From: a virus
Lineage: Duplodnaviria; Caudoviricetes
IMG/VR virus record: IMGVR_UViG_3300012952_000026
Span: 1 to 55,764 of that record
Strand: one strand, 5' to 3'
DNA length: 55,764 nt
Under the pieces are notes generated by a model, which made no database searches, was not told the origin of the DNA, and saw nothing but the letters and a program-made list of their open reading frames with translations. Within the stretch, counting starts at the first letter, position 1; each line of letters starts with the position of its first letter. The position numbers and the translations under genes were made by a program. Shown piece after piece: positions 1,585-55,565 of the stretch.

Positions 1585-3567
1585 TTATTCTTTGTTATCT
1601 TTATTTTCTTTATTTTCTTTTAAACCATCGAATGATTTAAGAGTTGACTTAAGTTCTGCTGTCATTTTTGCATTTTCACTTAATTTTTCATCAATATAAT
1701 TGTTAAAACTAAAACTTTCTTTTTCTTCCATTATTATCGGCTTTGGAGGCTTTAAGTCATTAGTGGCTGTTTTTAACGTCCGATTTGACTTTGCACCAAA
1801 CGGATGTGCCATTGAATCTTGATCCTGCTTTCCATACCTGTGTTTTCTAACACTTGGTCCATATCGATTCACGTTTGTTGCACGTGGACGATGGTCTATA
1901 TCGTTATTTGCTGTAACGGGTAATTTATGACCATGTTTATTGACTCTTGATTTCTTTTTGCTCTTAACCGGTCCTGCCGTGTTTGTGTTTAGTAGTTCAG
2001 ACGAAGTTGCATTATTTATTTTATCTTGCGCTTTTAGGGGTGCATTTTCATCTGTGATTGATTGCCTTACATCATCGTCAGTATTTGATTCTTCATCTGG
2101 TTTTTCTTCATTTTCCATAACAACGTCATCTGGTGGTGGGCCAACCTCAACACCTGCATCTGAATCATTTGATGATACAACACTTTCAACGTCTAAGTCT
2201 TTTAACTTATCGTTAATTCGGCCCTCTTCAATTGCAGAAATTTCTTCATCAGTCATTCTAAATACATTTTTACGAATCCATTCCCTGTCGACTAATCCTT
2301 CTGGAACTTGCCCCGCTATTTCAAAACGCGTCCTAAACAATTCTAATTTTTGTTGCTGCGCTATTGTTGATGGATTTGATAAATTAAGTGTAAAATCAAT
2401 TAAATCTTCACCATCAAATCCATTTGCATACAAATGAATCACTGCTATTTTATTTAACTCTGAAATAATTGTTCTTTGCATTCTTTGAATTGTTCGTGAA
2501 AATCTTACATCTTCTTGAGCTAAAGTAGCTTTTGCGCCGAGGCCCTCATCATATCCAAGATATGCTTTTGGAATTTTTAGTGCAGCAAATAATTTCTTTT
2601 GAATATATTCAACATCTTCAATTGCAGTCGTATTTGTACCACCGGCCAGCGTATCAATTTTTGTTCCTGTGTCTGCACCCCTAACAGGAAGATAATAATC
2701 CTCATCAACAGATAATGGATTATAACGAAGATCAACTCTTCCACTTGTTTGATCTACAACCTGATTTCTTTTAAGGGTAGTCTGGACTTGCTCCATATAG
2801 TTTCCTATATCTTCAGGTGGAACATTTCCTACATCTACATAAAATACTCTTCTTTCTGGTGAACGAACTACACGATAAACCAGCATTGCATCTTCAATTA
2901 AAATTAATTGCCTCCATATTCTACGCGCAGGCTCCAAAACAGAAGAACCATATGGCAAAAATGCATCATTACCAAGAAGCCTAAAGTGTGAAATTTGCCA
3001 ATTTTCTAAAACTTGATTACCCTGAGTAATCCATCGAAAACGAACAGCCATAGGATCATCTGGGTCGTATCCTTCTTCACGTTCTATTTCATTTACTGGA
3101 ATTGGAAATGCATTAATAATACCGTGCTCTGGTGAAACATCATTAAAAAGAAAGAAATCACCATATTTACAAAGATTTCTTGCCCATGAAGGCAAATTAA
3201 AATCAACATTAAGTGTATCTAGAAATAAATCATTTAATAATATTTCAACTTGTGGATTATTTGAATGAACATGTAATACTTGTCCGTGTTCATCTGCCGC
3301 ACAAATCTCTTCTGAGTATATGTCGAGTGCGCTTGCAATTTCTGGTGAATATTCCATTTCACCAAAGTCAGCTGATCTTGCCATTCTATCATAAGATCCA
3401 TACGCAGACATTGCAGTATTATAAATCGCACTATTTGATTTACGAAATAATTCATATGCAGATGAATCTACATTACTGTGACCTGAGTCACGTACCCTTC
3501 TTTTAATAACTGGGCCACTTCTAAAAAGCCTTGTTAAATTACTAAATAAATTTTTGTTATCTGCCAT
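1585..3567 (-). CDS. gp20: Portal protein (T4 gp20-like) with long C-terminal extension
   Basis: Motifs PEIASALDIY, QLILIEDAMLVYRVVRSPERRVFYVDVGN, EDYYLPVRG, TKIDTLAGG and DVEYIQKKLFAALKIPKAYL. Confidence 0.93.
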   Translation of the reverse strand: MADNKNLFSNLTRLFRSGPVIKRRVRDSGHSNVDSSAYELFRKSNSAIYNTAMSAYGSYDRMARSADFGEMEYSPEIASALDIYSEEICAADEHGQVLHVHSNNPQVEILLNDLFLDTLNVDFNLPSWARNLCKYGDFFLFNDVSPEHGIINAFPIPVNEIEREEGYDPDDPMAVRFRWITQGNQVLENWQISHFRLLGNDAFLPYGSSVLEPARRIWRQLILIEDAMLVYRVVRSPERRVFYVDVGNVPPEDIGNYMEQVQTTLKRNQVVDQTSGRVDLRYNPLSVDEDYYLPVRGADTGTKIDTLAGGTNTTAIEDVEYIQKKLFAALKIPKAYLGYDEGLGAKATLAQEDVRFSRTIQRMQRTIISELNKIAVIHLYANGFDGEDLIDFTLNLSNPSTIAQQQKLELFRTRFEIAGQVPEGLVDREWIRKNVFRMTDEEISAIEEGRINDKLKDLDVESVVSSNDSDAGVEVGPPPDDVVMENEEKPDEESNTDDDVRQSITDENAPLKAQDKINNATSSELLNTNTAGPVKSKKKSRVNKHGHKLPVTANNDIDHRPRATNVNRYGPSVRKHRYGKQDQDSMAHPFGAKSNRTLKTATNDLKPPKPIIMEEKESFSFNNYIDEKLSENAKMTAELKSTLKSFDGLKENKENKDNKE

Positions 3568-6080: not shown

Positions 6081-7097
6081 ATGGGAAAATTTATATTAAC
6101 GGGTGTTACTTATGACAATGACGAGGAAGGTGATGGACATTCACCCCTGTGGGTTGCTGTTGGTGGTGGATATGTTGCGCACTCAACAGATGGTACAAAC
6201 TGGACAGAAGTAGCTATAAATGGTATTTCTGGGCTTAAGGATTTAACATTTGGTAAAAATGCAGAGGATGTAGATACATGGTATGGTTGTTCACATGTAG
6301 ATTCAAACTCAATTGCCTACACAACTGATGTTACTGACGCCAATTCATGGACGGCTGTAAACCCTTCTGGAAATGGTGGTGGGTATGCAATAGAATACAG
6401 TGCAAATGGCACTATAATACTTGGCAGAGAACATGAAAACTATGCGCTTAGAAGATCGACTGATTTTGGCGTAACTTGGACTAATTCAACAGTTGTCAAC
6501 CCGTCAGGAAACAATCCAAAAGTAACAAATTCATTAGCAACGAACGGCAGTGGACTTTGGGTTGCTGGGTTTGGAACTCTCGGTGTGATTATGAAATCAT
6601 ATGATGACGGTGTAACATGGTATAAATCAGCTGATTTGGGCTCAGATGAACATATTGGGCTTGAATACGCTAACGGAGTATGGGTTGCATCAGAGAAGGG
6701 AAAAACAATTAATATCTGTACAAGTATTAGCGAAGACACTAATCTTGATACATGGACGCAAATTGATCCTCCTGGTCAGCGAACACCAGACTCAATTACT
6801 TATGTAAGCGGGGACACATGGATTGTTGGTGGAGGCAGAAGAAATGTGTGGAGAAGCACTGATAATGCTGCTACGTGGACACAAGTAACAAGCCTGCCAA
6901 ACCCTAGTGGATCTGCAATATCAACAGACAATGTTCCATATTCACTTGCTTCAGATGGCACAAATGTTATCGCAACTGGTAAAAATGGGCACATTAATAT
7001 CTCTACAGATCTTGGTGATACATGGACATTAGTTTATACAATGTCAACAGGTCAAGACATGAATGCTGTTGAATACAACAAAGTTAAGCCGTTTTAA
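6081..7097 (+). CDS. Asp-box (BNR) repeat beta-propeller protein
   Basis: Repeated S-x-D-x-G-x-T-W motifs (STDGTNW, STDFGVTW, SYDDGVTW, STDNAATW, STDLGDTW); strong AAGGAG RBS. Confidence 0.88.
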   Translation: MGKFILTGVTYDNDEEGDGHSPLWVAVGGGYVAHSTDGTNWTEVAINGISGLKDLTFGKNAEDVDTWYGCSHVDSNSIAYTTDVTDANSWTAVNPSGNGGGYAIEYSANGTIILGREHENYALRRSTDFGVTWTNSTVVNPSGNNPKVTNSLATNGSGLWVAGFGTLGVIMKSYDDGVTWYKSADLGSDEHIGLEYANGVWVASEKGKTINICTSISEDTNLDTWTQIDPPGQRTPDSITYVSGDTWIVGGGRRNVWRSTDNAATWTQVTSLPNPSGSAISTDNVPYSLASDGTNVIATGKNGHINISTDLGDTWTLVYTMSTGQDMNAVEYNKVKPF

Positions 7098-7118
7098 AAA
7101 AACGTTAACTTTACTTCT

Positions 7119-7152
7119 AAATTGCCCGGCTTTGTCGGGCAATTTTATTTTT
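7119..7152 (+). terminator. Intrinsic terminator between convergent genes
   Basis: Stem AAATTGCCCGGC/GTCGGGCAATTT (one G-U pair), 3-nt loop, followed by a T-rich tract. Confidence 0.75.
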
Positions 7153-10100
7153 GAGACACATGAGAATTATTTTTGTCACTAGTAATTTCAATAATATTAT
7201 CTACAATATCCTTGACTGCATCAACATGTGATATAATAATTATATTTTTAAAGTATTGCTTAAGTGAAGTCAATAGTCTACCGCACATCTCTACATTCAT
7301 TTCATCTAATGCACCGAATCCCTCGTCAATAATAAGCATATTTGTTTTTGGTAGTGATGATACATTAATTAATGCAACCCTTATAGCAAGAGATGCAATC
7401 ATTTTTTCCATACCTGATGCGAGCTCTATAATGCGCTTTGAATCACCGTAGTTAATATAAATATCCATTGCATTTGTATTAGGGTCGGCCTCTAATTCAA
7501 CTGTAAACCCAACGGTGTTTTGTAGGATTTTTGATATTTCATTGTTGATATTAGGAAGCTGGCTCATGATAATTTGAAGAGGTATTCCTTTTTTGGAAAC
7601 TGCATTAATAAAGAGTTTGTATATTTCCCACCTATTTTTTAAGTCACTATATTTTTCTCTCTCTTCGTTTAACGATGATATCTCATTTTCTATTCTACCT
7701 ATGTTCTGCGCTGCATGCATTCTTTTCGCATCGACATCACTAATTTCAGTATTTAATGTTGAAATTTTTGTTTTTAGTTGCTTAGTTTCATCACTAACAT
7801 CTGAAGTTTTACATTCTCTCTTTAGTTTTTCAAGAAGTAAATTAGCTTGAATAAGTGCATCTTCAGCTGATGAAAGCTCAAGTGTCTTTGCAGCAAGGCA
7901 CGCTTTTTCATTTGCAAGCTCTACCCTATTTGTGGACTCTTTTCTTAACACCTCATTATATTTTTCTAATTTTTCATCTAGTTTCTTAGACACAAATTCA
8001 TTATGAGTCCTTTGAGTTGCATCTAATATTTTTTGCAATTCATTTACAAACTCTAATTGTTCTTGAATTGAAGCCTTGTCCTTAAAAGAGTCTTTTATAA
8101 ATTTACATGTTGGAAAAGAATCACCACATGGCACTTCAGAAAGCTTATTTATTGATTTTTCTTTTCTATTTAAGATCTCATTTTGGTGCTTTAGATCTCC
8201 TGTTAACTGAAGCAATGTTTTTTCATTTTCAGACATTTCCTTTATTTGCAAGTTTAATTGTTCATAAGGAAAATTTTCTTTGAATAGTTCAATTTTGTCA
8301 ATCTTTGATTGAATTGTTTTAATTTCATTGTTTCTAGACTCTATTAAACCATTAATTCTTTTAATTTTTTCATTTAATTTATTTACATTATCCTGCTGGT
8401 TGTTAACATCATGCTGTGTTACTCCACAAGAATCATCTAGTTTATTTAATTCAATTTGCAATGTTTGTAAAGTATGCCTCTTTTTAGATAGCTCTGACTC
8501 TAAGTTTTTAATTAAAGATTTTTCGTCTTTAAGGTCTTCATTCAAACTATAAAGAACAACATCCCAGTCTCTGTCAGGAACATCTTTCATTAGTGTGTTC
8601 ACTTCGTCTAATTCTGTTTTTGCAAACTTTTGCATTCCATCAAAAATATCTAAATCAAGAAACTTTGTTAGAATCATTTTTCTTCTTGTGGCTTTTTCAC
8701 CAATGAAATTATTCATTCCACCTTGTGATGCCAATGAAGTCATAAGAAAATCCTCAGAAGTTCCTATTAGGTTACGAAGTATTACCTCTGTTTCACGGCG
8801 CTGTTCACCGTCCATATCTTTTGAAACATTTCCTGCCGCATCAACAAGATCAAGTGTAAGATCTGTTCTTGCTGTAACTACGCCCTTTTTGCTTTCACTT
8901 TTTGTTGATGTTCGTGTTGTTTTATATCTTTTTCCATTTACTGAAAATTGTGTTGTAACATCACATGAGCCTTTTCTTGAATTAATAATGTGCACATTTT
9001 TAATTGGCCCCCTGTCTGTTGTGTTAAACAATCCATACATCATGGTCCCAATAATTGAAGATTTACCAGATCTATTTGGTCCAAAAATTCCAATTATTCC
9101 GCGTAATTTATCAAAGTTTATTGAGTTATCTTTACCGTAAGAAAAAGTATTGTTAAAATCTACTGAGTGTATGTTCCACTTTGCGTTTCGCGATATTTCA
9201 TCTGATTTTGATAAAGATGACAAAGATCTTGTTATTAACTTATCAAGGCTTTCAGTCTTTTTACTATCAAGATCAGAGTTTTTATAAAACTTTTTAAATA
9301 GTGTTGAATGAACAGATGAATCTCTCAAATTATAAGATGTTGGTGCCTCTTTGTCAATTATTTGAGGTGCCTCAAAATCTTCTTCTATTTTATATACTAT
9401 TTCAGCAGCTTCTTTTTCATGCTTTAGCTCAGAGTGAAGATGTATAATATCTGACTGCGCTATTGCTTTATCGCTTCTTATTCTAAATCTTGAACCATTT
9501 GGAAAACCCCTTGCTACATCTATTGTATCTTTTACGTTGTTTTGCCAATCAATAGTTACAAAAGGACGTGTGTGTTCAAGTTCATGGTATTTTACGCTAA
9601 AGTCATCTTTGTCCTTAATGTCCCAAACCAAAAATCCTTTACCTGTATTTTCACCATAATTTTGCTGAATTAGTGAACCTGGATATCTTACGCGTCCATA
9701 GTCATCAACAATTTGTCGCTGATGAATGTCACCCAATAATGCGAAATCAAACTTATCAAAAAACGATATATCAACTTCGCCTTCAATTGTCCAGTCTGTG
9801 TCAGTTTTAGAGCCGCGAACAGCTCCATGAAATAATGCAATATTTATTTTATCTTCTTCTGGTTCAATATCATCCCATTTTGCTTCGTCAAAACAAGAAA
9901 AGTTATTCCAAACAAACTTATCTTCATATCCTGCAACTGGGAAATTACCAGACTCTTTATATAAAAATATATTTGGATTATTTAATGCATTTACAATTGG
10001 TGTAATTGCGTCTTGCCTGTCTTTGTTTTTTATTAAGCCATCGTGGTTTCCAAGAATGATATGTGTTGGTGCTATCTCTGCAAGTGATGTAAACCACCAC

Positions 10101-10285
10101 TGAATCAGATCAATGAGCTCTGGTGATATCCCCTGTGTCTTAGAGTGTACAATATCACCACCAATATAGATAATATCTGGTTTTATTTCACGTGCCATTT
10201 CGTTCATTTTTTCAAATGACGCTCTATATTCTTTATGCCTACTCAGGCCCCTAATGTGAATATCTGCTGTATGTAATATTTTCAT
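7145..10285 (-). CDS. Mre11-Rad50 (SbcD-SbcC; T4 gp47-gp46-like) fusion protein
   Basis: Metallophosphoesterase motifs DIH, GGD, GNHD, HG and GDIH, followed in the same frame by Walker A GPNRSGKSS, Q-loop, coiled coil, signature LASGME, Walker B LIIDEGFG and H-loop IISH. Confidence 0.93.
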   Translation of the reverse strand: MKILHTADIHIRGLSRHKEYRASFEKMNEMAREIKPDIIYIGGDIVHSKTQGISPELIDLIQWWFTSLAEIAPTHIILGNHDGLIKNKDRQDAITPIVNALNNPNIFLYKESGNFPVAGYEDKFVWNNFSCFDEAKWDDIEPEEDKINIALFHGAVRGSKTDTDWTIEGEVDISFFDKFDFALLGDIHQRQIVDDYGRVRYPGSLIQQNYGENTGKGFLVWDIKDKDDFSVKYHELEHTRPFVTIDWQNNVKDTIDVARGFPNGSRFRIRSDKAIAQSDIIHLHSELKHEKEAAEIVYKIEEDFEAPQIIDKEAPTSYNLRDSSVHSTLFKKFYKNSDLDSKKTESLDKLITRSLSSLSKSDEISRNAKWNIHSVDFNNTFSYGKDNSINFDKLRGIIGIFGPNRSGKSSIIGTMMYGLFNTTDRGPIKNVHIINSRKGSCDVTTQFSVNGKRYKTTRTSTKSESKKGVVTARTDLTLDLVDAAGNVSKDMDGEQRRETEVILRNLIGTSEDFLMTSLASQGGMNNFIGEKATRRKMILTKFLDLDIFDGMQKFAKTELDEVNTLMKDVPDRDWDVVLYSLNEDLKDEKSLIKNLESELSKKRHTLQTLQIELNKLDDSCGVTQHDVNNQQDNVNKLNEKIKRINGLIESRNNEIKTIQSKIDKIELFKENFPYEQLNLQIKEMSENEKTLLQLTGDLKHQNEILNRKEKSINKLSEVPCGDSFPTCKFIKDSFKDKASIQEQLEFVNELQKILDATQRTHNEFVSKKLDEKLEKYNEVLRKESTNRVELANEKACLAAKTLELSSAEDALIQANLLLEKLKRECKTSDVSDETKQLKTKISTLNTEISDVDAKRMHAAQNIGRIENEISSLNEEREKYSDLKNRWEIYKLFINAVSKKGIPLQIIMSQLPNINNEISKILQNTVGFTVELEADPNTNAMDIYINYGDSKRIIELASGMEKMIASLAIRVALINVSSLPKTNMLIIDEGFGALDEMNVEMCGRLLTSLKQYFKNIIIISHVDAVKDIVDNIIEITSDKNNSHVSQK

Positions 10286-11145
10286 TGAACTATTCTCCGC
10301 TGTGTAGAAAACGAATCTACAGTGCTGCTAATAATTTTCTTTTTTGATTTTTTTCCAATTGTTATTATTTCTAGTGTAGTAAATTGTCTATTACTATTTG
10401 ATGTAACTGAATTAAATGGTTTATTCTTTTTTAATTTTATAAATTTAGGCGATGTTATTTTTTCTTTTTCTATTTTTCCAAATATTGTTGCAACGGCTCT
10501 TTTGTTGTTCTTTATAATAAATGTTAATTTTTTATTGACATTTTCATTTTCTATTGTTATATTGCACACTTTTTTTAGACTTCCATCAATTAATTGAAAA
10601 CACCTAAAATATTTTTGTTTGTTATTTATAAAAAATGATTTTATAATAACATCGTGTTTATCGTTATTTAATGTAAACCAATCACCGTCGTATTCATTAG
10701 AACTTTGTTGCGATATTTTATATGTTGATTCACTTGGTTTAATAATAAAATTATTGATATCATCTATATCATTTATGCATGTAAACTCTTGAATATTTAA
10801 TATTTCTTTATTTTTATCAATATATGAAATCCTTTCATGCAATGGCTTAGTATAAATTATTTTTTCATCATAAATTAATGAATCTATTATTGTTATATCA
10901 TTATCAGGTGATATTATAGAAAGATATGCTGTATTGTTTGGAATTTCATCTGGCATGTCTGGAATATTTTTAAAATTTATTCCAATCCTTGTTTTAAAAT
11001 ATGTTTTATTATTAAATTTATAAAAAATGCCAAGTGTGCCTGGTAGTTTTTTATGTGCTAAAAGACTATCTTTGTCATATATTTTTAATAATTCATCTAA
11101 ATTATTTATTTTTTGTGTCCTCATTAGAGAAAAATTATCAAACAT
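10282..11145 (-). CDS. Degenerate ATP-dependent DNA ligase-fold protein (probably catalytically inactive)
   Basis: Colinear relics of ligase motifs: SLMRT, HKKLPGT, KTRIG, IIDSLIYD..KPLHER, FIIKPSESTY, DWFTL, DVII and SPKFIKLKKNK. AAGGA RBS before ATG 11145; ATGA overlap with the Mre11-Rad50 start. Confidence 0.65.
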   Translation of the reverse strand: MFDNFSLMRTQKINNLDELLKIYDKDSLLAHKKLPGTLGIFYKFNNKTYFKTRIGINFKNIPDMPDEIPNNTAYLSIISPDNDITIIDSLIYDEKIIYTKPLHERISYIDKNKEILNIQEFTCINDIDDINNFIIKPSESTYKISQQSSNEYDGDWFTLNNDKHDVIIKSFFINNKQKYFRCFQLIDGSLKKVCNITIENENVNKKLTFIIKNNKRAVATIFGKIEKEKITSPKFIKLKKNKPFNSVTSNSNRQFTTLEIITIGKKSKKKIISSTVDSFSTQRRIVQ

Positions 11146-11155
11146 ATGTTGTTCC

Positions 11156-12106
11156 TTAAAAAATTGATCCACTTTTAATGTTGTTTATTATAAAACTCAT
11201 TCTATCGTTTCGTACCCATGGCTTTGCTTTAGATCTTGCTTCTTCAAATTGTTGTTTTGTCATTTCACCTACATCATCATAATTACCCAAGTCAAGAACC
11301 CTTATGTCTATATTGTACTCGCTTAATAGTTTTGCTATTTTATGTGTTTTATGTGGCATATCTGAATCAAGTGCTAATAATATTGGTGTTTTATGCTTTA
11401 TTATCTCCTGAAAAAGTAGCCCATCTTCTGGTAAAGCTGAACCCAATATTGCAGTTGCGTTTTCATTACATCTCATTAAATCAAATGGCCCTTCAACTAA
11501 TGTTAGTTCTTTTGACCAATCAATGTTGATATGATTAAATATTATTGTCTTTTTGGGAATCTTTGCATTTAAGTATTTTATAAAAGAATCATCATCTATT
11601 GAGCGAGCCGCAAAAAAATTAAGTTCACCTGCATTATCAAATGAAGGCATAAAAATTCTCCGCCTAAATCTGCCTGACGTATATGTTCCTAATTTATAGT
11701 ACCAAATATCAGCTATTGATATATTCCGCCTAGAAAGATAAAAACGAGCAGCTTTTATATCTGGATCCTCTAGTTGCCTCTTTTTTCCTAAAAATGAAAA
11801 ACCCTTTGGTAATTCTAATTTTTGCTCTTCTGCAACTTCTTCATGTGTTATTTTTTTACCAAGGATTTTTGATGTATATTCATCTACTTTTGCTGGATAA
11901 TATTTTTTTAAAATGCCTAAAAGATTTTTGCCCTTAAAGCCGCAAACCCAGCATTGAAACATATCACTTTGTAAATTAATTGATAGTTTTTTCTTTCTTT
12001 TATCTGCACACTTAGGGCAGGGCACTGTAATATCCGTTGATGATATTATACTAGCTTGCCCAAATGTGCGTTGAATAAAATCTATTTTTTGCTTTTCAGA
12101 ATACAA
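11156..12106 (-). CDS. DNA primase (zinc-binding domain plus TOPRIM)
   Basis: CPKC...CWVC zinc motif, YLSRRNI, RRIFMP, KYLN, VEGPFD, ALDSD and DVGEM; TTG start. Confidence 0.9.
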   Translation of the reverse strand: MYSEKQKIDFIQRTFGQASIISSTDITVPCPKCADKRKKKLSINLQSDMFQCWVCGFKGKNLLGILKKYYPAKVDEYTSKILGKKITHEEVAEEQKLELPKGFSFLGKKRQLEDPDIKAARFYLSRRNISIADIWYYKLGTYTSGRFRRRIFMPSFDNAGELNFFAARSIDDDSFIKYLNAKIPKKTIIFNHINIDWSKELTLVEGPFDLMRCNENATAILGSALPEDGLLFQEIIKHKTPILLALDSDMPHKTHKIAKLLSEYNIDIRVLDLGNYDDVGEMTKQQFEEARSKAKPWVRNDRMSFIINNIKSGSIF

Positions 12107-12134: not shown

Positions 12135-12163
12135 ATTTTATATAATATATTTTATTTGTTCAA
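12135..12163 (-). promoter_or_regulatory. Putative sigma70-type promoter TTGAAC-N17-TAAAAT for the primase operon
   Basis: Near-consensus -35 and -10 boxes with 17-nt spacing, directly upstream of the primase. Confidence 0.45.
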
Positions 12164-12700
12164 TGTTTTATGCCCTGCTTTTGCTATCACATATGCATCT
12201 GCAACATCGTAGCATCCGGGATCGTATATTTCTAAACCTTTTCTTGGCCCAGATTTTAATGTCTTCATTTGCCATGAATATCCACCAAGGTCAGCGTCTA
12301 CCCATTCAAGTACTTTTTCTTTCGTTGTTTTTGATTTATCTTTTTTATTTATCTTTAAATTTATTAGCTTGCGAGCCATATTAACATTTAAAAATTCTGG
12401 CTCGATTCCTAAAATTTGATATGACAATAATGTTACCATTCCATTAAAACGAGCAAGTGTTATTAGCACTTTTGCAGAAGACAAACCAGGCCTAAACATT
12501 TGTAAGTTTTCTTCTATAAAAATATGCGATATATCATATTTTTTACGTATGCTTTTTAGCTCATCAATGACCCTCTCAGTCTTCTGGAGGGTACTGTTTA
12601 TCTTACCTAATGGAATACATGCCTGTTCTATTAGTGTACCATCCAGTGACAATAGAGACCACCCTGTTGATGATGTGGATATATCTAAGCCAAGAATCAT
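12152..12700 (-). CDS. RuvC-like Holliday junction resolvase
   Basis: RNase H-fold acidic motifs ILGLDIS..TGW, IFIEE and DVADAYVIA. Confidence 0.82.
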   Translation of the reverse strand: MILGLDISTSSTGWSLLSLDGTLIEQACIPLGKINSTLQKTERVIDELKSIRKKYDISHIFIEENLQMFRPGLSSAKVLITLARFNGMVTLLSYQILGIEPEFLNVNMARKLINLKINKKDKSKTTKEKVLEWVDADLGGYSWQMKTLKSGPRKGLEIYDPGCYDVADAYVIAKAGHKTLNK

Positions 12701-42598: not shown

Positions 42599-43333
42599 CT
42601 ACCTAAAAAATATATCAAATTGATCATTTTTCTTAATTGACCTATAATGGCGTCTTATCGCTGACATCGCAACAGACAATTGTTTTGGATTTAGTCCTGA
42701 TAAATCTCTTAAATACACAAAGACCGCTCTTTTGTTTAAAAAATCTAAATCATCAATACTGGAAAATAATGTTATTATGGCGTCTATGCATGCAATTTCA
42801 TTTGCGCCGTCAAGCCTTCCTTTTATTTCATCTAGCAACGTAAATAAATTCTCTATAGCATTCTTTTTTAACATTGCTGCATCTTGTGATTCTGCTATTG
42901 AATGTGTTTCAATCGCAACTTTGTCGCGATGACTTAATATTTCTACATCGTCAATTGACACTGAGCGTTTTAATTCGCGTGTATTTTTCTTTGATCTGAT
43001 TATTAACCAATTCTTTGCCACAACATTAAAATAAGAAAACGCCTTTGAACCCTTTGATGGATCAAACTTATTAAGTGTTTCGTATAAAAAAGTAACACAA
43101 TCATTTTTTAAATCTTCGTATGAACCAGTTAATGATTTAAACCCATGAATAAAAATAAGATTTTCAACCAACTTATTAAAAGGTTGCTTAATTCTTGTCA
43201 CATATATTTCGTGCCGCTCTTCTTCTGTTTCTGCTTTTTGGAACTCACAAATCGCATCATGGGCAGGGCGACCAAAATACATTTTAGTTCCTTTTCGTTT
43301 CCCCCGTTTTCTTGAAACTCGTCTTGTTATCAA
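42599..43333 (-). CDS. gp55: Phage late-type sigma factor (T4 gp55-like, region 2 dominated)
   Basis: Sigma region 2 signature YEDLKNDCVTFLYETLNKFDPSKGSKAFSYFNVVAKN; no canonical region-4 HTH recognised; TTGA overlap with the upstream gene. Confidence 0.75.
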   Translation of the reverse strand: MITRRVSRKRGKRKGTKMYFGRPAHDAICEFQKAETEEERHEIYVTRIKQPFNKLVENLIFIHGFKSLTGSYEDLKNDCVTFLYETLNKFDPSKGSKAFSYFNVVAKNWLIIRSKKNTRELKRSVSIDDVEILSHRDKVAIETHSIAESQDAAMLKKNAIENLFTLLDEIKGRLDGANEIACIDAIITLFSSIDDLDFLNKRAVFVYLRDLSGLNPKQLSVAMSAIRRHYRSIKKNDQFDIFFR

Positions 43334-43660: not shown

Positions 43661-44827
43661 TTATAAAATATTTTTTTGAATTAGGTTGTCATATTGTTTT
43701 GAAATTGCAGAAAAAGAGTATTTTTGTTTTATTTTTTCAGATAACTTATTTGATTTTGATTTGATTCCTTTTCTATTTTTATAGAAGTTTTTTACTTTGT
43801 TTTTAAAATCTTGTTCATTTACTTCGGCCCACTTTAATCCATTTACAAATATATTATTATCTATTTTTCTTTTATCAACTTCTTTTAATTCATAATCTAG
43901 TTTAATAAATGATCCAAGATTAAGAAAGTCTAGGTGTCCTGACCAGTTTGTAGCAACCACAGGAAGTGATGATGCCGCTGCCTCAAGCAATGGTAAACCG
44001 AAACCCTCACCTCTTGTTGCAGAAACTATTGCATTTATTTTTTTATTTTTGTATACTGCTGCAATTTCACTAGGCGTCATATTACCATGCAGCACATGTA
44101 TTTTTGGGTATTGTCCTACCCTTACTTCTTTTATTAATTTTCTTATAATATTTGTAGTTATTGCTTTGTCAATTTTTGTTGATCTGCCAGAATTAGTCTT
44201 AAAAACTATACCTACGTCACTATTATCTTTAAATTCTTCACAAAGCCACTTAATAGTATTGAATAAATTTTTTCTGTCTGTTTCTGGCTTAAATCCTGTA
44301 AATTGTCCAAATACCAAAAAATTAAATTTAGTGTCAATATTCAAATCAATATGTTGAATTTCATTGTCAATTGATTCATGATATGACTCTCCTATAACAA
44401 TTATTTTCGTAGTAACATCTATACCAGTATCATAAATAGTTTTTTTAACAAACTGTGATGGAACAATTACAAGGTCCATATTGTTTATTTTTCTTATCCA
44501 TGCTGGATTACATTTATCTGTTTCAACAAGAGCAGTCACACCAATATTAAACTTTGCTAATTTTGGATCCCACTCATTAGGAAGTTGAATTTGAAATGAT
44601 ATATCAAATGTAGCTGTGTCAGAAACTGATGCATTTAATATTTTACCAATAAGTCCTTCTTCTGCATCATGGTTTAATAACCACGGTGTATTTCCCCAAT
44701 TCACAATTTGCGATGTTACATTAAAATCATTCTTACTAAATAAATATTTTATTATTTGCCTTGAATGAACTCCATATCCTGACTGGCTTAACAACGGTGC
44801 TCTAATTACTACATTTTTTTTATTCAT
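43661..44827 (-). CDS. GT-B glycosyltransferase (family 4-like)
   Basis: SGYGVHSR, DRKNL and RGEGFGLPLLEAAASSLPVVAT; ATG 44827 forms an ATGA overlap with the upstream glycosyltransferase. Confidence 0.9.
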   Translation of the reverse strand: MNKKNVVIRAPLLSQSGYGVHSRQIIKYLFSKNDFNVTSQIVNWGNTPWLLNHDAEEGLIGKILNASVSDTATFDISFQIQLPNEWDPKLAKFNIGVTALVETDKCNPAWIRKINNMDLVIVPSQFVKKTIYDTGIDVTTKIIVIGESYHESIDNEIQHIDLNIDTKFNFLVFGQFTGFKPETDRKNLFNTIKWLCEEFKDNSDVGIVFKTNSGRSTKIDKAITTNIIRKLIKEVRVGQYPKIHVLHGNMTPSEIAAVYKNKKINAIVSATRGEGFGLPLLEAAASSLPVVATNWSGHLDFLNLGSFIKLDYELKEVDKRKIDNNIFVNGLKWAEVNEQDFKNKVKNFYKNRKGIKSKSNKLSEKIKQKYSFSAISKQYDNLIQKNIL

Positions 44828-46062
44828 AGTGTTGTTACATCCCATGGTTTATAATCATTTTTCCAATTATTAATTGTTTCTTTTAGAGAATTATGCCACA
44901 AATCAACTGTAGTTTTAAGATTAAACTCAGATTTTACATAGTCGATTACCTTGTTTGACATCTCTGCTTTCTTATTTTCATCATATGAATATACTTCAAA
45001 AATACCGTTTGCTATATCTTCTATTGAAGAATAATCTTCATAAATATATGGCACTTGCTGAGCACCTGCTAACGTTTTTGTTGTGATATCTATAGCAGCA
45101 CCATTGACAGATCCATCCCTATGGTCAATAACTTGCCGTGTTAATCCACCAGTTTTTGCTGCAATAATAGGTACACCACACTGCATTGCCTCAAGTGTTG
45201 AAAGACCAAAACCTTCTGAGAAACTTATATTAATACATGCATCTGAAATATTATACAGCACATTTATTTTTTCAAAATCAAGCCTATCCCTTGAAAAAAA
45301 TACTGTATCTTTTATCCCAAGATGCTCTGAAACCTTGTATAGGTTTGGTCCCTCTTTGTCATATGGATCTGTATGCATGATTAATACTGCATCATTTTTA
45401 TTTGTTTTTTCTAAAAATGCTTTCCATGCGACCAATAAATCGCCTGGTCTTTTTCGTTTAGCGTTTCTATTATTCCAAATTACAACAAAATGATTTTCAC
45501 GCTCTGGGCCCAAAATATTTCGCTTGTATTGCTTGATTGATTCGTCTGGAAGTTTATGAAATATAGATTCAGGAACTGCGTGAGGTATAAAGTTTACCCT
45601 TGGGTGCTCTAAATTTTCAGAAAGCATTTTATATGTTATATATGAATGGCAATTAATTGTGTCTGTAGATTCATAGAGTGATCTATTGAATTCTGGAAAC
45701 GGATAATTGTCCCAAACATGCCAATATGCAATTGGGCAGACCTGATGAATTTCATCTTCCATCTCCCATAACCAAATAAAAAACCTGGGGTCAGTAAAAA
45801 TAAAAATAAGATCAGGCTTTTCGGTTGCTAATGTAAGCCTAATTAAATTTCTATCACCGAAGCCATCTATAGGTTTAATTACGAAATCATCATTAACATG
45901 AACTGGTTTATAGTCAGCATGTTTCATTGCTGCACCAAACTGCCTAAATGTCCATTCGTTTTTCTGAAGTAAACCATTAATAAGGTGACGAGTTTGTGTC
46001 CCTACACCTGAAGTAGAGAGTGCATGATCAGATAGCACTAATATCTTTTTCTTTTTTTGCAT
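44824..46062 (-). CDS. GT-B glycosyltransferase (family 4-like)
   Basis: SGVGTQ, RNAKRK and SEGFGLSTLEAMQCGVPII. Confidence 0.9.
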   Translation of the reverse strand: MQKKKKILVLSDHALSTSGVGTQTRHLINGLLQKNEWTFRQFGAAMKHADYKPVHVNDDFVIKPIDGFGDRNLIRLTLATEKPDLIFIFTDPRFFIWLWEMEDEIHQVCPIAYWHVWDNYPFPEFNRSLYESTDTINCHSYITYKMLSENLEHPRVNFIPHAVPESIFHKLPDESIKQYKRNILGPERENHFVVIWNNRNAKRKRPGDLLVAWKAFLEKTNKNDAVLIMHTDPYDKEGPNLYKVSEHLGIKDTVFFSRDRLDFEKINVLYNISDACINISFSEGFGLSTLEAMQCGVPIIAAKTGGLTRQVIDHRDGSVNGAAIDITTKTLAGAQQVPYIYEDYSSIEDIANGIFEVYSYDENKKAEMSNKVIDYVKSEFNLKTTVDLWHNSLKETINNWKNDYKPWDVTTL

Positions 46063-50558: not shown

Positions 50559-51863
50559 TCAAATCATTTTTGATATAGCAGTTGCAAGCTCTGATCTTTC
50601 ACCCTTTTGCAGTGTAATGTGACCTGAAAGGTGTGATGATTTCATTTTTTCTATAAAAACAGTTAAACCATTAGAAAGTGTATCAATGTATGGCGTGTCT
50701 ATTTGTTCAAGGTCACCAAGTAATACAATCTTTGATCCCTCACCTATTCTTGTAACAACTGTTTTTAGTTCATGTACAGTTAAGTTTTGTGCTTCATCAA
50801 CAATAAAAAAAGTATTTGCGAAAGTTCTACCACGGATATAAGACAGTGGCGCAATTTCAAATTGACCCTTTTTTCTCATCATTTCAAAATAAGATAAATC
50901 ATTAAATGCCTGCCTGAAATTGTCAACAATTGGTGCTATCCATGGATCCATTTTTTCATCAATATCACCAGGTAAAAATCCAATATCCTTTCCTACAGGT
51001 TGCACAGATCTTGTCATTACAATTCTATTGTATTTTTTATCATTAAGACCAGATAATCCTGCCATAAGTGTTAAAAAAGTTTTTCCTGATCCTGCAAGTC
51101 CAGACAATGTTACAAGTGGGACATCATCTCTTGTTAGTAAATTCAATGCAAATTTTTGCTCTTTGTTTCTTGAGTTTATATCTATTGCTCTATTTAAAAA
51201 ATCTTCAACCTTTACAATTCTATTTTGTGTATGATCATACCTGCATATACATGATTGCTTTGTGCCTTTATTTTTTAATACTATAAATTGATTTGGTAGA
51301 AATTCATTTTCAAATTCATCTCCACAAATCCAACCATCAGCATAAAACTCATCTATAAGTGAGGGATCAAATTCATCAATTAAAACCTGTCCTGTAAATA
51401 TTTCACTTGTTTCTTTTACAATTCTATCTCTATAATAGTCTTCAGCTGCAATTCCTAATGCATCACATTTTACTCTAAAGTTTATATCTTTTGTAATGAC
51501 TATTACATCTTCATCTTCATTTTCTTGAATATATTTTGCAACACCAAGAATTTTATTGTCACCATAATCAGTTTCAAGTCCATCAGGTATTTTATCATCA
51601 TAACAATTTAATTCAACACGAATAGTTTGGCCATTGTCAATATCTACACCTTCGTTTATATTTCCTTTTGCTCTTAAGTCATCAAGGAAACGGTTGATAT
51701 ACCTGGCATTCTCTCCGATTAATTCCTGCCTATCCTTGAACCTATCCAGTTCATCGAGAACAACAATTGGTATAATGACCTTATGACCGTCTAAAGTATG
51801 AATAGAGTGGCAATCATAAAGAAGAACGGATGTATCAAGTATGAATGTTTTTTGTTTTTTCAT
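50559..51863 (-). CDS. phoH: PIN-PhoH (PhoH2-type) ribonuclease/ATPase
   Basis: PIN motifs ILDTSVLL, VLDELD, DNKIL and TKDINFR; PhoH motifs GLAGSGKT, IGFLPG, YIRGRT, VDEAQN, LGDLEQID and ERSELA; AAAGGA RBS before ATG 51863. Confidence 0.93.
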   Translation of the reverse strand: MKKQKTFILDTSVLLYDCHSIHTLDGHKVIIPIVVLDELDRFKDRQELIGENARYINRFLDDLRAKGNINEGVDIDNGQTIRVELNCYDDKIPDGLETDYGDNKILGVAKYIQENEDEDVIVITKDINFRVKCDALGIAAEDYYRDRIVKETSEIFTGQVLIDEFDPSLIDEFYADGWICGDEFENEFLPNQFIVLKNKGTKQSCICRYDHTQNRIVKVEDFLNRAIDINSRNKEQKFALNLLTRDDVPLVTLSGLAGSGKTFLTLMAGLSGLNDKKYNRIVMTRSVQPVGKDIGFLPGDIDEKMDPWIAPIVDNFRQAFNDLSYFEMMRKKGQFEIAPLSYIRGRTFANTFFIVDEAQNLTVHELKTVVTRIGEGSKIVLLGDLEQIDTPYIDTLSNGLTVFIEKMKSSHLSGHITLQKGERSELATAISKMI

Positions 51864-51950
51864 TAATAGAGTTCCTTTCATTATGAACAATTAAAAATAA
51901 TAAATTATATTTTAACTATAAAACCCCAGACACAAAGAGTAAAAATATAA

Positions 51951-55195: not shown

Positions 55196-55565
55196 TGGTG
55201 GACCCGGCGGGAGTCGAACCCGCGTCCGCAACAGCTTTAAAGTCAAATCATTCACAGGTTTGTCTAATTTACTATCACAAATTAGAAAAGATAGCTGATT
55301 ATCCCTGCGCTTTATCAACCTATTGCGCCCCACCTGTTTCCAGGGAACCATTATGATTTTTTATTTTTGCAGGATCTCTACCTGTTATCTTAAGTTGGGT
55401 AATAAGGTCTTAAGAAACCCCATGAATTAGGCCGCTAAGCGGGCTGCTTCGAAGTGATAATTGTTATTTGCAATTAAAGTTTTGAAACCGCGTTTTAGGT
55501 CTGCTATTTCGTGAGACCACCTGCACTATCGTTCTCTGCTACTCCGTCGAAGCCGTTTCGGGCCC
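55196..55565 (-). ncRNA. ssrA: tmRNA (transfer-messenger RNA), 370 nt
   Basis: 5' GGGCCCGAAACGGCTTCGAC and 3' GCGGGTTCGACTCCCGCCGGGTCCACCA form an acceptor stem with the G3-U alanine determinant, a T-arm and an encoded CCA; an internal tag ORF is present. Confidence 0.95.
55427..55471 (-). other. tmRNA proteolysis tag reading frame, ANNNYHFEAARLAA-stop
   Basis: Resume codon GCA after TTAATT; C-terminal LAA typical of ssrA tags. Confidence 0.88.

Follow-up and report, generated by a model that had tools for sequence, protein, structure and literature searches.

The stretch of DNA analysed here (the window) is a 55.8-kb fragment of 55,764 nucleotides, IMG/VR record IMGVR_UViG_3300012952_000026, from a tailed virus (Caudoviricetes) whose record is rated 17% complete. 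On its minus strand, between the genes for a DnaG-type primase and a single-chain Mre11-Rad50 fusion, lies a gene, here called ligL, whose product (P0001) is very probably a catalytically dead homologue of the ATP-dependent DNA ligases that has been retained by selection. The window also encodes T4-like terminase, portal, prohead protease, baseplate and tail-fibre proteins, a gp55-like sigma factor and PhoH. The nearest isolates, Microcystis phage Mel-JY01 and Flavobacterium phage immuto, are distant, with terminase large subunits (TerL) 42-43% identical, and near-identical DNA is present in marine metagenome runs from several studies, no RNA data set being among the 22 sequencing runs listed. 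The carriers of ligL are one sub-lineage of uncultured marine jumbo myoviruses.

The ligL gene is co-oriented and tightly packed with the primase and Mre11-Rad50 genes (Table 1). The TAA stop codon of the primase gene (11158-11156) is located just upstream of the ligL start codon, and the TGA of ligL (10284-10282) overlaps the ATG of the Mre11-Rad50 gene (10285-10283) in an ATGA sequence. An earlier note on this sequence had described an intact frame whose ribosome-binding site overlaps the primase stop and whose own stop overlaps the nuclease start, and these details held when they were checked. Because every full-length homologue begins with MFDNFSLM, the start codon was assigned to the ATG at 11145, and the GTG at 11172, which would give a longer protein, was ruled out. 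No convincing terminator was found between the primase, ligL and Mre11-Rad50 genes, and promoter-like sites in the window are no commoner than in shuffled sequences (55 versus 45 +/- 5.9). The GC minimum of the window (0.281) falls in the bin 10001-12000.

Table 1. Position and strand of ligL, its parts, its neighbours and other features of the window.
Feature	Position	Strand	Remarks
ligL (protein P0001)	10282-11145	minus	287 residues plus stop; intact open reading frame; catalytically degenerate ATP-dependent DNA ligase homologue
Ribosome-binding site of ligL, AAGGA	11153-11157	minus	Overlaps primase stop; 7 nt before ATG
Adenylation (nucleotidyltransferase) domain, residues 1-162	10660-11145	minus	Degenerate motifs I, III, IIIa, IV and V; VIA-align, hhalign, residue table
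Codon of K33, counterpart of the adenylated motif I Lys	11047-11049	minus	Alignments
OB domain, residues 163-240	10426-10659	minus	Closes with motif VI remnant K237-L-K-K-N-K-P243; profile alignment, model
Family-specific C-terminal extension, residues 241-287	10285-10425	minus	Not in canonical relatives
DnaG-type primase (Zn finger, DnaG_N, Toprim)	11156-12106	minus	Directly upstream of ligL; phrog_47 at 4.7e-39
Mre11-Rad50 (SbcD-SbcC) single-chain fusion, 1046 residues	7145-10285	minus	phrog_77 at 4.2e-59; Pfam: Metallophos at residues 1-189 (E 7.7e-14) and SbcC Walker B / SMC
RuvC-like Holliday-junction resolvase	12152-12700	minus	phrog_159 at 1.3e-12; first gene of the RuvC-primase-(slot)-Mre11/Rad50 block
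Hairpin, 12 bp, GC-rich, with T-runs	7119-7145		Between the convergent ends of the Mre11-Rad50 gene and a plus-strand gene (6081-7097)
gp55-like late sigma factor	42599-43333	minus	Weak match, E 1.1e-4
Two tandem paralogous glycosyltransferases	43661-46062	minus	phrog_2170
PhoH-like protein	50559-51890	minus	E 1.9e-100
tmRNA gene, one-piece, full-length	55196-55565	minus	ARAGORN; Rfam RF00023, 100.7 bits, E 3e-38

When P0001 was used alone as the query, nothing significant was retrieved, the best E-values being 0.057 in Pfam, 0.099 in PHROGs and 0.11 in the PDB (phmmer); PF01068 gave no match at E<=1, NCBIfam gave none, and no Pfam, NCBIfam or PHROG model reached its threshold. A profile of the close clade searched against the PDB also returned nothing significant, and tblastn of P0001 and two distant members of the family against 50,697 GenBank phage records gave no match. 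P0001 has 22 metagenomic homologues of 51-86% identity, and a profile built from 17 close homologues was searched against 1.84 billion representatives and retrieved 41 proteins (E<=1e-3). Of 30 profile matches that were scanned, 25 pass the Pfam cut-off for DNA_ligase_A_M, and the other five (P0026, P0027, P0033, P0036 and P0041) have about 300 residues and align along the full length of the query. The family profile was aligned by hhalign to six canonical small ligases over 247 columns with a probability of 99.4% (E 3.7e-21), and it also matches ligase IV (E 5.5e-4). The ligL product is a two-domain (adenylation plus OB) homologue of the small phage ATP-dependent DNA ligases.

In agreement with this assignment, the AlphaFold model, whose mean predicted local distance difference test score (pLDDT) rose from 73.8 to 86.7 (predicted template modelling score 0.81) after distant family members were added to the alignment, adopts a ligase-like fold. 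A Foldseek search of the PDB gave a best E-value of 7.9e-9 and at least 132 matches at E<=0.001, and the top matches listed were DNA ligases or capping enzymes without exception. VIA-align placed the model on the adenylation and OB core of the Pyrococcus furiosus ligase (2cfm, residues 218-535) with a Z-score of 16.3 and a root mean square deviation of 3.2 A over 237 residues, and the rows limited to the nucleotidyltransferase domain cover model residues 1-159/164. The top matches in a BFVD structure search were viral DNA ligases, and an Atlas feature search pointed to viral PF01068 clusters (score 0.95). For the predicted model, the structural match to ligases is thus far beyond chance, and the lack of a ligase fold, which the earlier note had named as a finding that would speak against it, was not what Foldseek and hhalign returned. 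By descent and fold ligL belongs to the ATP-dependent DNA ligase superfamily, yet it should not be filed as a ligase, because it lacks the catalytic motifs of the family and stays below its curated sequence thresholds.

The profile-profile alignment to the canonical small ligases places motif I (KxDGxK/R) of P0001 at K33-L-P-G36-T-L, the motif III Glu at I77, the Y-D of motif IIIa at I87-D88, motif IV (EGxxxK) at N131-N132-F-I-I-K136, the KxK of motif V at T158/N160, and motif VI (RxRxDKP) at K237-L-K239-K-N241-K242-P243, which is still basic and has lost the Asp. The motif map drawn in the earlier note, including its position for the K33 codon, was reproduced by this alignment. In a residue table of 17 close and 12 distant family members aligned with the six canonical ligases, the motif I Asp is kept in none of 28 family sequences, the motif III Glu in none of 29, and the motif IV Glu in none of the family, with Asp in four. 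Neither is the first motif V Lys kept (0/29), and the second is kept in a single member; all 17 close homologues have Leu in place of the motif I Arg/Lys and an aliphatic residue in place of the base-stacking aromatic one of motif IIIa. The adenylated Lys of motif I is retained in 16 of the 17 close homologues (Arg in P0004) and in 5 of 11 distant members, the other six having V, Y, R, L or I. Other parts of the scaffold are preserved: motif Ia of P0001 reads T52-R53-I-G55, its Gly being kept in 29/29 members and its Arg in 25/29, the motif IIIa Asp (D88) and the motif IV Lys/Arg (K136) are kept in 29/29, and the motif V Trp, the OB core and the basic remnant of motif VI are kept as well. The lost catalytic positions are all invariant in the six canonical ligases, and in the Chlorella virus ligase single alanine changes at such positions abolish activity. 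In active ligases, as set out by Williamson & Leiros 2020 (PMC7470946), the residues at these positions bind ribose, metal and alpha-phosphate, and the motif IV Lys contacts adenine N1. Because the residues that hold ribose, metal and alpha-phosphate are replaced, nucleotidyl transfer by ligL appears, from its sequence, to be very unlikely.

The ligL family has also gained a domain end of its own, since the canonical relatives stop right after motif VI and the members of this family continue for about 45 residues. This tail is predicted in the deeper model (pLDDT about 55-80) as a beta-hairpin with strands 257-262 and 268-273 and the turn G-K-K-S-K-K-K, and a pattern of hydrophobic strands and a basic turn is also present in the tails of distant members. 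All 27 aligned family members are basic, with isoelectric points of 8.9-9.9 and net charges of +5 to +31; in P0001 the OB domain contributes +10 and the tail +7, and residues 1-130 are slightly acidic. A latch is mentioned for the Chlorella virus ligase in the part of PMC7470946 that concerns it, and by analogy the hairpin of ligL could be a latch that helps to enclose duplex DNA.

Eight ligL-carrying loci were collected, namely the window, L002-L005 and the distant L006-L008, these last found from three sub-alignments of the nine-member distant alignment, one locus each. Wherever the flanks are present, the gene order in all eight is RuvC-like, primase, ligL, Mre11/Rad50, p128, terminase, portal, and the ligL stop and fusion start overlap in five of them. 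The three distant loci share with the window 47-50% identity in the primase, 49-54% in the fusion, 62-70% in TerL and 24-27% in ligL. The ligL genes are orthologues in a fixed position. At the 16 loci of canonical ligase relatives no primase or Mre11-Rad50 gene lies nearby, and therefore no active ligase was found in the position of ligL.

The ratios of nonsynonymous to synonymous substitution rates (dN/dS) were estimated by the Nei-Gojobori method for the window versus four loci with DNA, where three pairs involving L003 were saturated and seven pairs could be estimated. The ligL values in these seven pairs were 0.095-0.126, which are approximate given the high dS (0.8-1.5), and those of the neighbours were 0.04-0.09 for the primase and 0.04-0.06 for the Mre11-Rad50 fusion. 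All three parts of ligL are constrained, with the lowest dN in the C-terminal tail and an omega of 0.095-0.19 in the nucleotidyltransferase domain, and the eight listed ligL variants, from contigs of other marine runs, are all synonymous. None of the eight loci with DNA and none of the 27 aligned proteins shows an interrupted reading frame, and 69 columns are invariant among 17 close homologues. Selection at these syntenic loci, which the earlier note had proposed to collect and compare, is thus purifying rather than neutral, and ligL is maintained by it as a pseudoenzyme, not a decaying gene. The fold and homology, the family-wide loss of catalytic residues and the purifying selection all support the pseudo-ligase that the note had put forward as one of its options.

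Minimal ATP-dependent DNA ligases that have only an adenylation and an OB domain are known from Chlorella virus and as Lig E. The minimal phage ligases of about 300 residues (P0035, P0037 and P0059) are like ligL in their two-domain fold, their size, and the order and spacing of motifs I-VI, and have in common with it the N-terminal MRxxK, the C-terminal DKP, motif Ia, the motif IIIa Asp and the motif IV Lys. In contrast, ligL has replaced the motif I Asp/Arg, the motif III Glu, the motif IV Glu-Gly and both motif V Lys residues, in distant orthologues the motif I Lys too, and it carries the extra 45-residue basic hairpin. DNA ligase IV (Dnl4) has a catalysis-independent role in end synapsis during end joining. 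The parallel to the role proposed below for ligL is that a ligase serves as a structural element at DNA ends, beside end processing of the Mre11-Rad50 type. Ligase IV, however, has remained catalytically active and works through BRCT/XRCC4 partners, and nothing of that kind accompanies ligL. According to a part of Iyer et al. 2021 (PMC7824862), jumbo phages without a known ligase keep a standalone ligase DNA-binding domain, for which recruitment of the host ligase was proposed. That domain is, like ligL, a non-catalytic piece of a ligase in such phages, whereas in ligL it is the catalytic core itself (adenylation plus OB) that was kept and inactivated. Among the papers searched in full text, none describes a phage with an inactivated ligase core of adenylation plus OB domain, in line with the earlier note, whose author knew of no described phage module of this kind.

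Given the fold, the charge and the genomic context, we lean towards the view that ligL is a selected pseudo-ligase that binds DNA nicks or ends without sealing them. It would be a non-catalytic, ligase-shaped DNA-binding module that has kept the DNA-contacting scaffold (the motif Ia Arg/Gly, the motif IV Lys, the OB domain and the basic remnant of motif VI) and has gained a hairpin whose Lys-rich turn could latch around the duplex. Its likely ligands would be nicks or 5'-phosphate ends that arise in replication and recombination, the structures made or attacked by the primase-driven lagging strand and by the Mre11-Rad50 nuclease. Binding without sealing would mark, hold or shield such sites for the co-expressed primase / Mre11-Rad50 machinery, and ligL could hold them for recombination-dependent replication or protect them from the nuclease. 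Alternatively, it might pass them to the host ligase, which is proposed because related phages seem to encode no ligase: PF01068 and PF01653 gave no match in five long contigs of relatives that lack ligL (G005-G009, the records of L077, L079, L086, L084 and L048; 125-242 kb, 37-73% complete), and no ligase besides ligL was found in the five ligL-bearing records, which are only 7-19% complete. The host ligase may serve this lineage instead. That ligL acts specifically with the neighbouring Mre11-Rad50 or primase is a tentative suggestion, and equally speculative is a role as a non-sealing reader of DNA breaks that would gate Mre11-Rad50/primase at recombination-dependent forks or hide breaks from host nucleases and defence.

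Several observations weigh against a nick- or end-binding role tied to the neighbouring genes. DNA binding is something that we infer from fold, charge and context. Since the ligL-bearing records are all fragments, a true ligase may lie elsewhere in these genomes. Some nucleotide or 5'-phosphate chemistry could persist, given that the close clade conserves K33, G36 and K136. The ligL gene has also diverged at roughly twice the rate of its neighbours (identity 24-27% versus 47-54%). A further restriction comes from relatives of the fusion gene. Among the best 80 of 464 IMG/VR stretches, counted as contigs that include duplicates and near-duplicates and are not independent lineages, 39 have the primase directly beside the fusion (gap <120 nt). 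Only five carry ligL, the same five contigs as found before, so that a constant co-occurrence with Mre11-Rad50 fails; 18 carry other inserts of 247-2370 nt between primase and fusion, which means that unrelated accessory genes fill the slot elsewhere, 12 have no primase within the available upstream sequence, and in six the upstream sequence is too short to judge. In a FastTree phylogeny of the fusion protein (82 rows), six of the seven ligL rows group in a supported clade that has eight rows, and the other two members of that clade, L037 and L039, are without ligL, which implies loss. L102, the seventh row with ligL, branches from an unresolved fork, and a minimum of three changes of state is needed. 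The outgroups lack ligL: the slot holds a 57-residue open reading frame in Mel-JY01, acidic and with no visible likeness to the ligL tail, and is empty in LR756508.

Taken together, these data indicate that ligL has long occupied a variable slot as an accessory gene and does not belong to the core of the primase / Mre11-Rad50 module. Because 39 of the 80 loci and also L037 and L039 do without it, ligL is not an obligate subunit of either neighbour, and because most relatives manage without it, its role must be modulatory. The coupling of ligL to the nuclease is a property of the sub-lineage; in other phages the slot is filled by different accessory genes. The suggestion in the earlier note of a cofactor or decoy for the recombination nuclease is therefore weakened as far as an obligate role is concerned and otherwise stays undecided.

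The same distribution bears on a second explanation, in which ligL would be an accessory host-interaction or anti-defence protein, a ligase-shaped decoy or shield that covers phage nicks and ends against host nucleases or break-sensing defence systems, or a titrant of a host factor such as the host ligase or clamp, functionally independent of the adjacent primase and Mre11-Rad50. We regard it as rather unlikely, although a shield or decoy accounts for the variable slot and the fast divergence about equally well as the nick-binding role does. A slot with ligL in five loci against other inserts in 18, a patchy distribution with at least one loss within the clade, a gene that evolves faster than its neighbours, and outgroups without it are all consistent with such a protein. 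Against it, the average dN/dS of about 0.1 gives no sign of an arms race, and the gene, translationally coupled in the close clade, has kept its position even where the identity of its neighbours has fallen to about 50%. PADLOC gave no match at E<=0.01 for four members of the family, its library being one of defence proteins and not of anti-defence proteins.

Residual enzymology and binding of a small ligand are less likely. Pseudoenzymes derived from the ligase/capping-enzyme fold are, to our knowledge, rare, and snurportin is the textbook case. A nucleotide- or cap-binding module, in which the dead adenylation pocket would accommodate, in the manner of snurportin-1, either a small ligand or a nucleic-acid end with a modification, is suggested by the match of the model to the m3G-cap-binding domain of that protein (1xk5; Z 14.3, 3.6 A, 154 residues), by a weak match of one distant member to Pfam SPN1_m3Gcap_bd (E 0.0039, below cut-off), and by the retention of the motif IV Lys that contacts adenine N1 in ligases. 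Snurportin-1, too, is a catalytically dead fold of this type, and it is reused for binding, as ligL would be, but it is a eukaryotic protein without a ligase-type OB domain, binds an RNA cap and shows no sequence relation to ligL beyond the fold; the hhalign result with canonical small ligases indicates that ligL descends from DNA ligases. Moreover, the aromatic residue that stacks on the base is aliphatic in all 17 close homologues, and an OB domain and a basic tail that a pure small-ligand binder would not need are kept and constrained, so that we consider this module improbable.

Quite improbable, too, is a protein that is still an enzyme, that is, a divergent ligase, adenylyltransferase or de-adenylase with a pocket rebuilt around Lys33, Gly36 and Lys136. 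The conservation of these residues in the close homologues (16/17, 17/17 and 17/17, respectively) and the purifying selection on the nucleotidyltransferase domain could be read in this way, but syntenic orthologues do without the Lys (6/11 of the distant members) and one close homologue has Arg, and the motif I Asp/Arg, motif III Glu, motif IV Glu and motif V Lys, whose roles are given in the cited part of PMC7470946, are replaced by non-equivalent residues throughout. Neutral decay of a ligase gene, the other option of the earlier note, is extremely improbable and can be set aside, since the low GC, the composition rich in K/N/I and the loss of catalytic motifs stand against frames intact in every locus and protein, a dN/dS of about 0.1 with synonymous population variants, 69 invariant columns, a confident model (pLDDT 86.7) and orthologues that are intact where the neighbours have diverged to about 50% identity.

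The preferred reading of ligL, as a nick- or end-binding pseudo-ligase, concerns a small and well-defined family, with a confident model and intact orthologues across a deep divergence, that is confined to one uncultured marine phage lineage. If nick binding is true, it would show how a seemingly ligase-less phage lineage handles nicks beside a powerful end-processing nuclease, and ligL could serve as a natural nick- or end-binding reagent. A break-reading function, if true, would make ligL the first pseudo-ligase of a virus and its C-terminal latch a new one. If the anti-defence explanation holds instead, the primase / Mre11-Rad50 junction of abundant marine jumbo phages would be an accessory-gene slot worth mining.

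The slot has other occupants in related phages. Acidic open reading frames of 70-150 residues are present in L038, L041, L045, L048, L053, L055, L063, L065, L066, L085, L088, L097 and L098; they form a family with an N-terminal LRxLIREEIKKLxQDDAxF-like motif, the longer ones with a C-terminal DDDLPEWVQSK as well, and none of them matches Pfam. In L086 the slot holds a fusion of a PAP2 phosphatase and a Fic/DOC domain of 439 residues (2220-3539, plus strand; Pfam E 1.3e-16 and 4.2e-6), which is flanked by two further open reading frames without an assigned family, and in L103 and L104 it is occupied by other open reading frames without an assigned function.

The 464 IMG/VR stretches that encode relatives of the fused Mre11-Rad50, on contigs of up to 242 kb, point to an abundant marine jumbo-phage lineage, in which the block p834 - RuvC - primase - (slot) - Mre11-Rad50 - p128 - TerL - portal is fixed. 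In the 484-kb uncultured phage LR756508.1 (L032, 5944-10169), where the primase gene is directly upstream of Mre11-Rad50 and no ligase-like gene is present, the Mre11-Rad50 gene is interrupted at about residue 191 by a stretch of about 1 kb with a Cys-rich open reading frame of 305 residues in another frame (6665-7582). This insert looks like a mobile insertion.

In the window itself, the hairpin downstream of the Mre11-Rad50 gene is likely a two-way terminator that closes the operon. The tmRNA gene, for which ARAGORN gave the tag peptide ANNNYHFEAARLAA, is either encoded by the phage or a sign that this end of the fragment adjoins host DNA.

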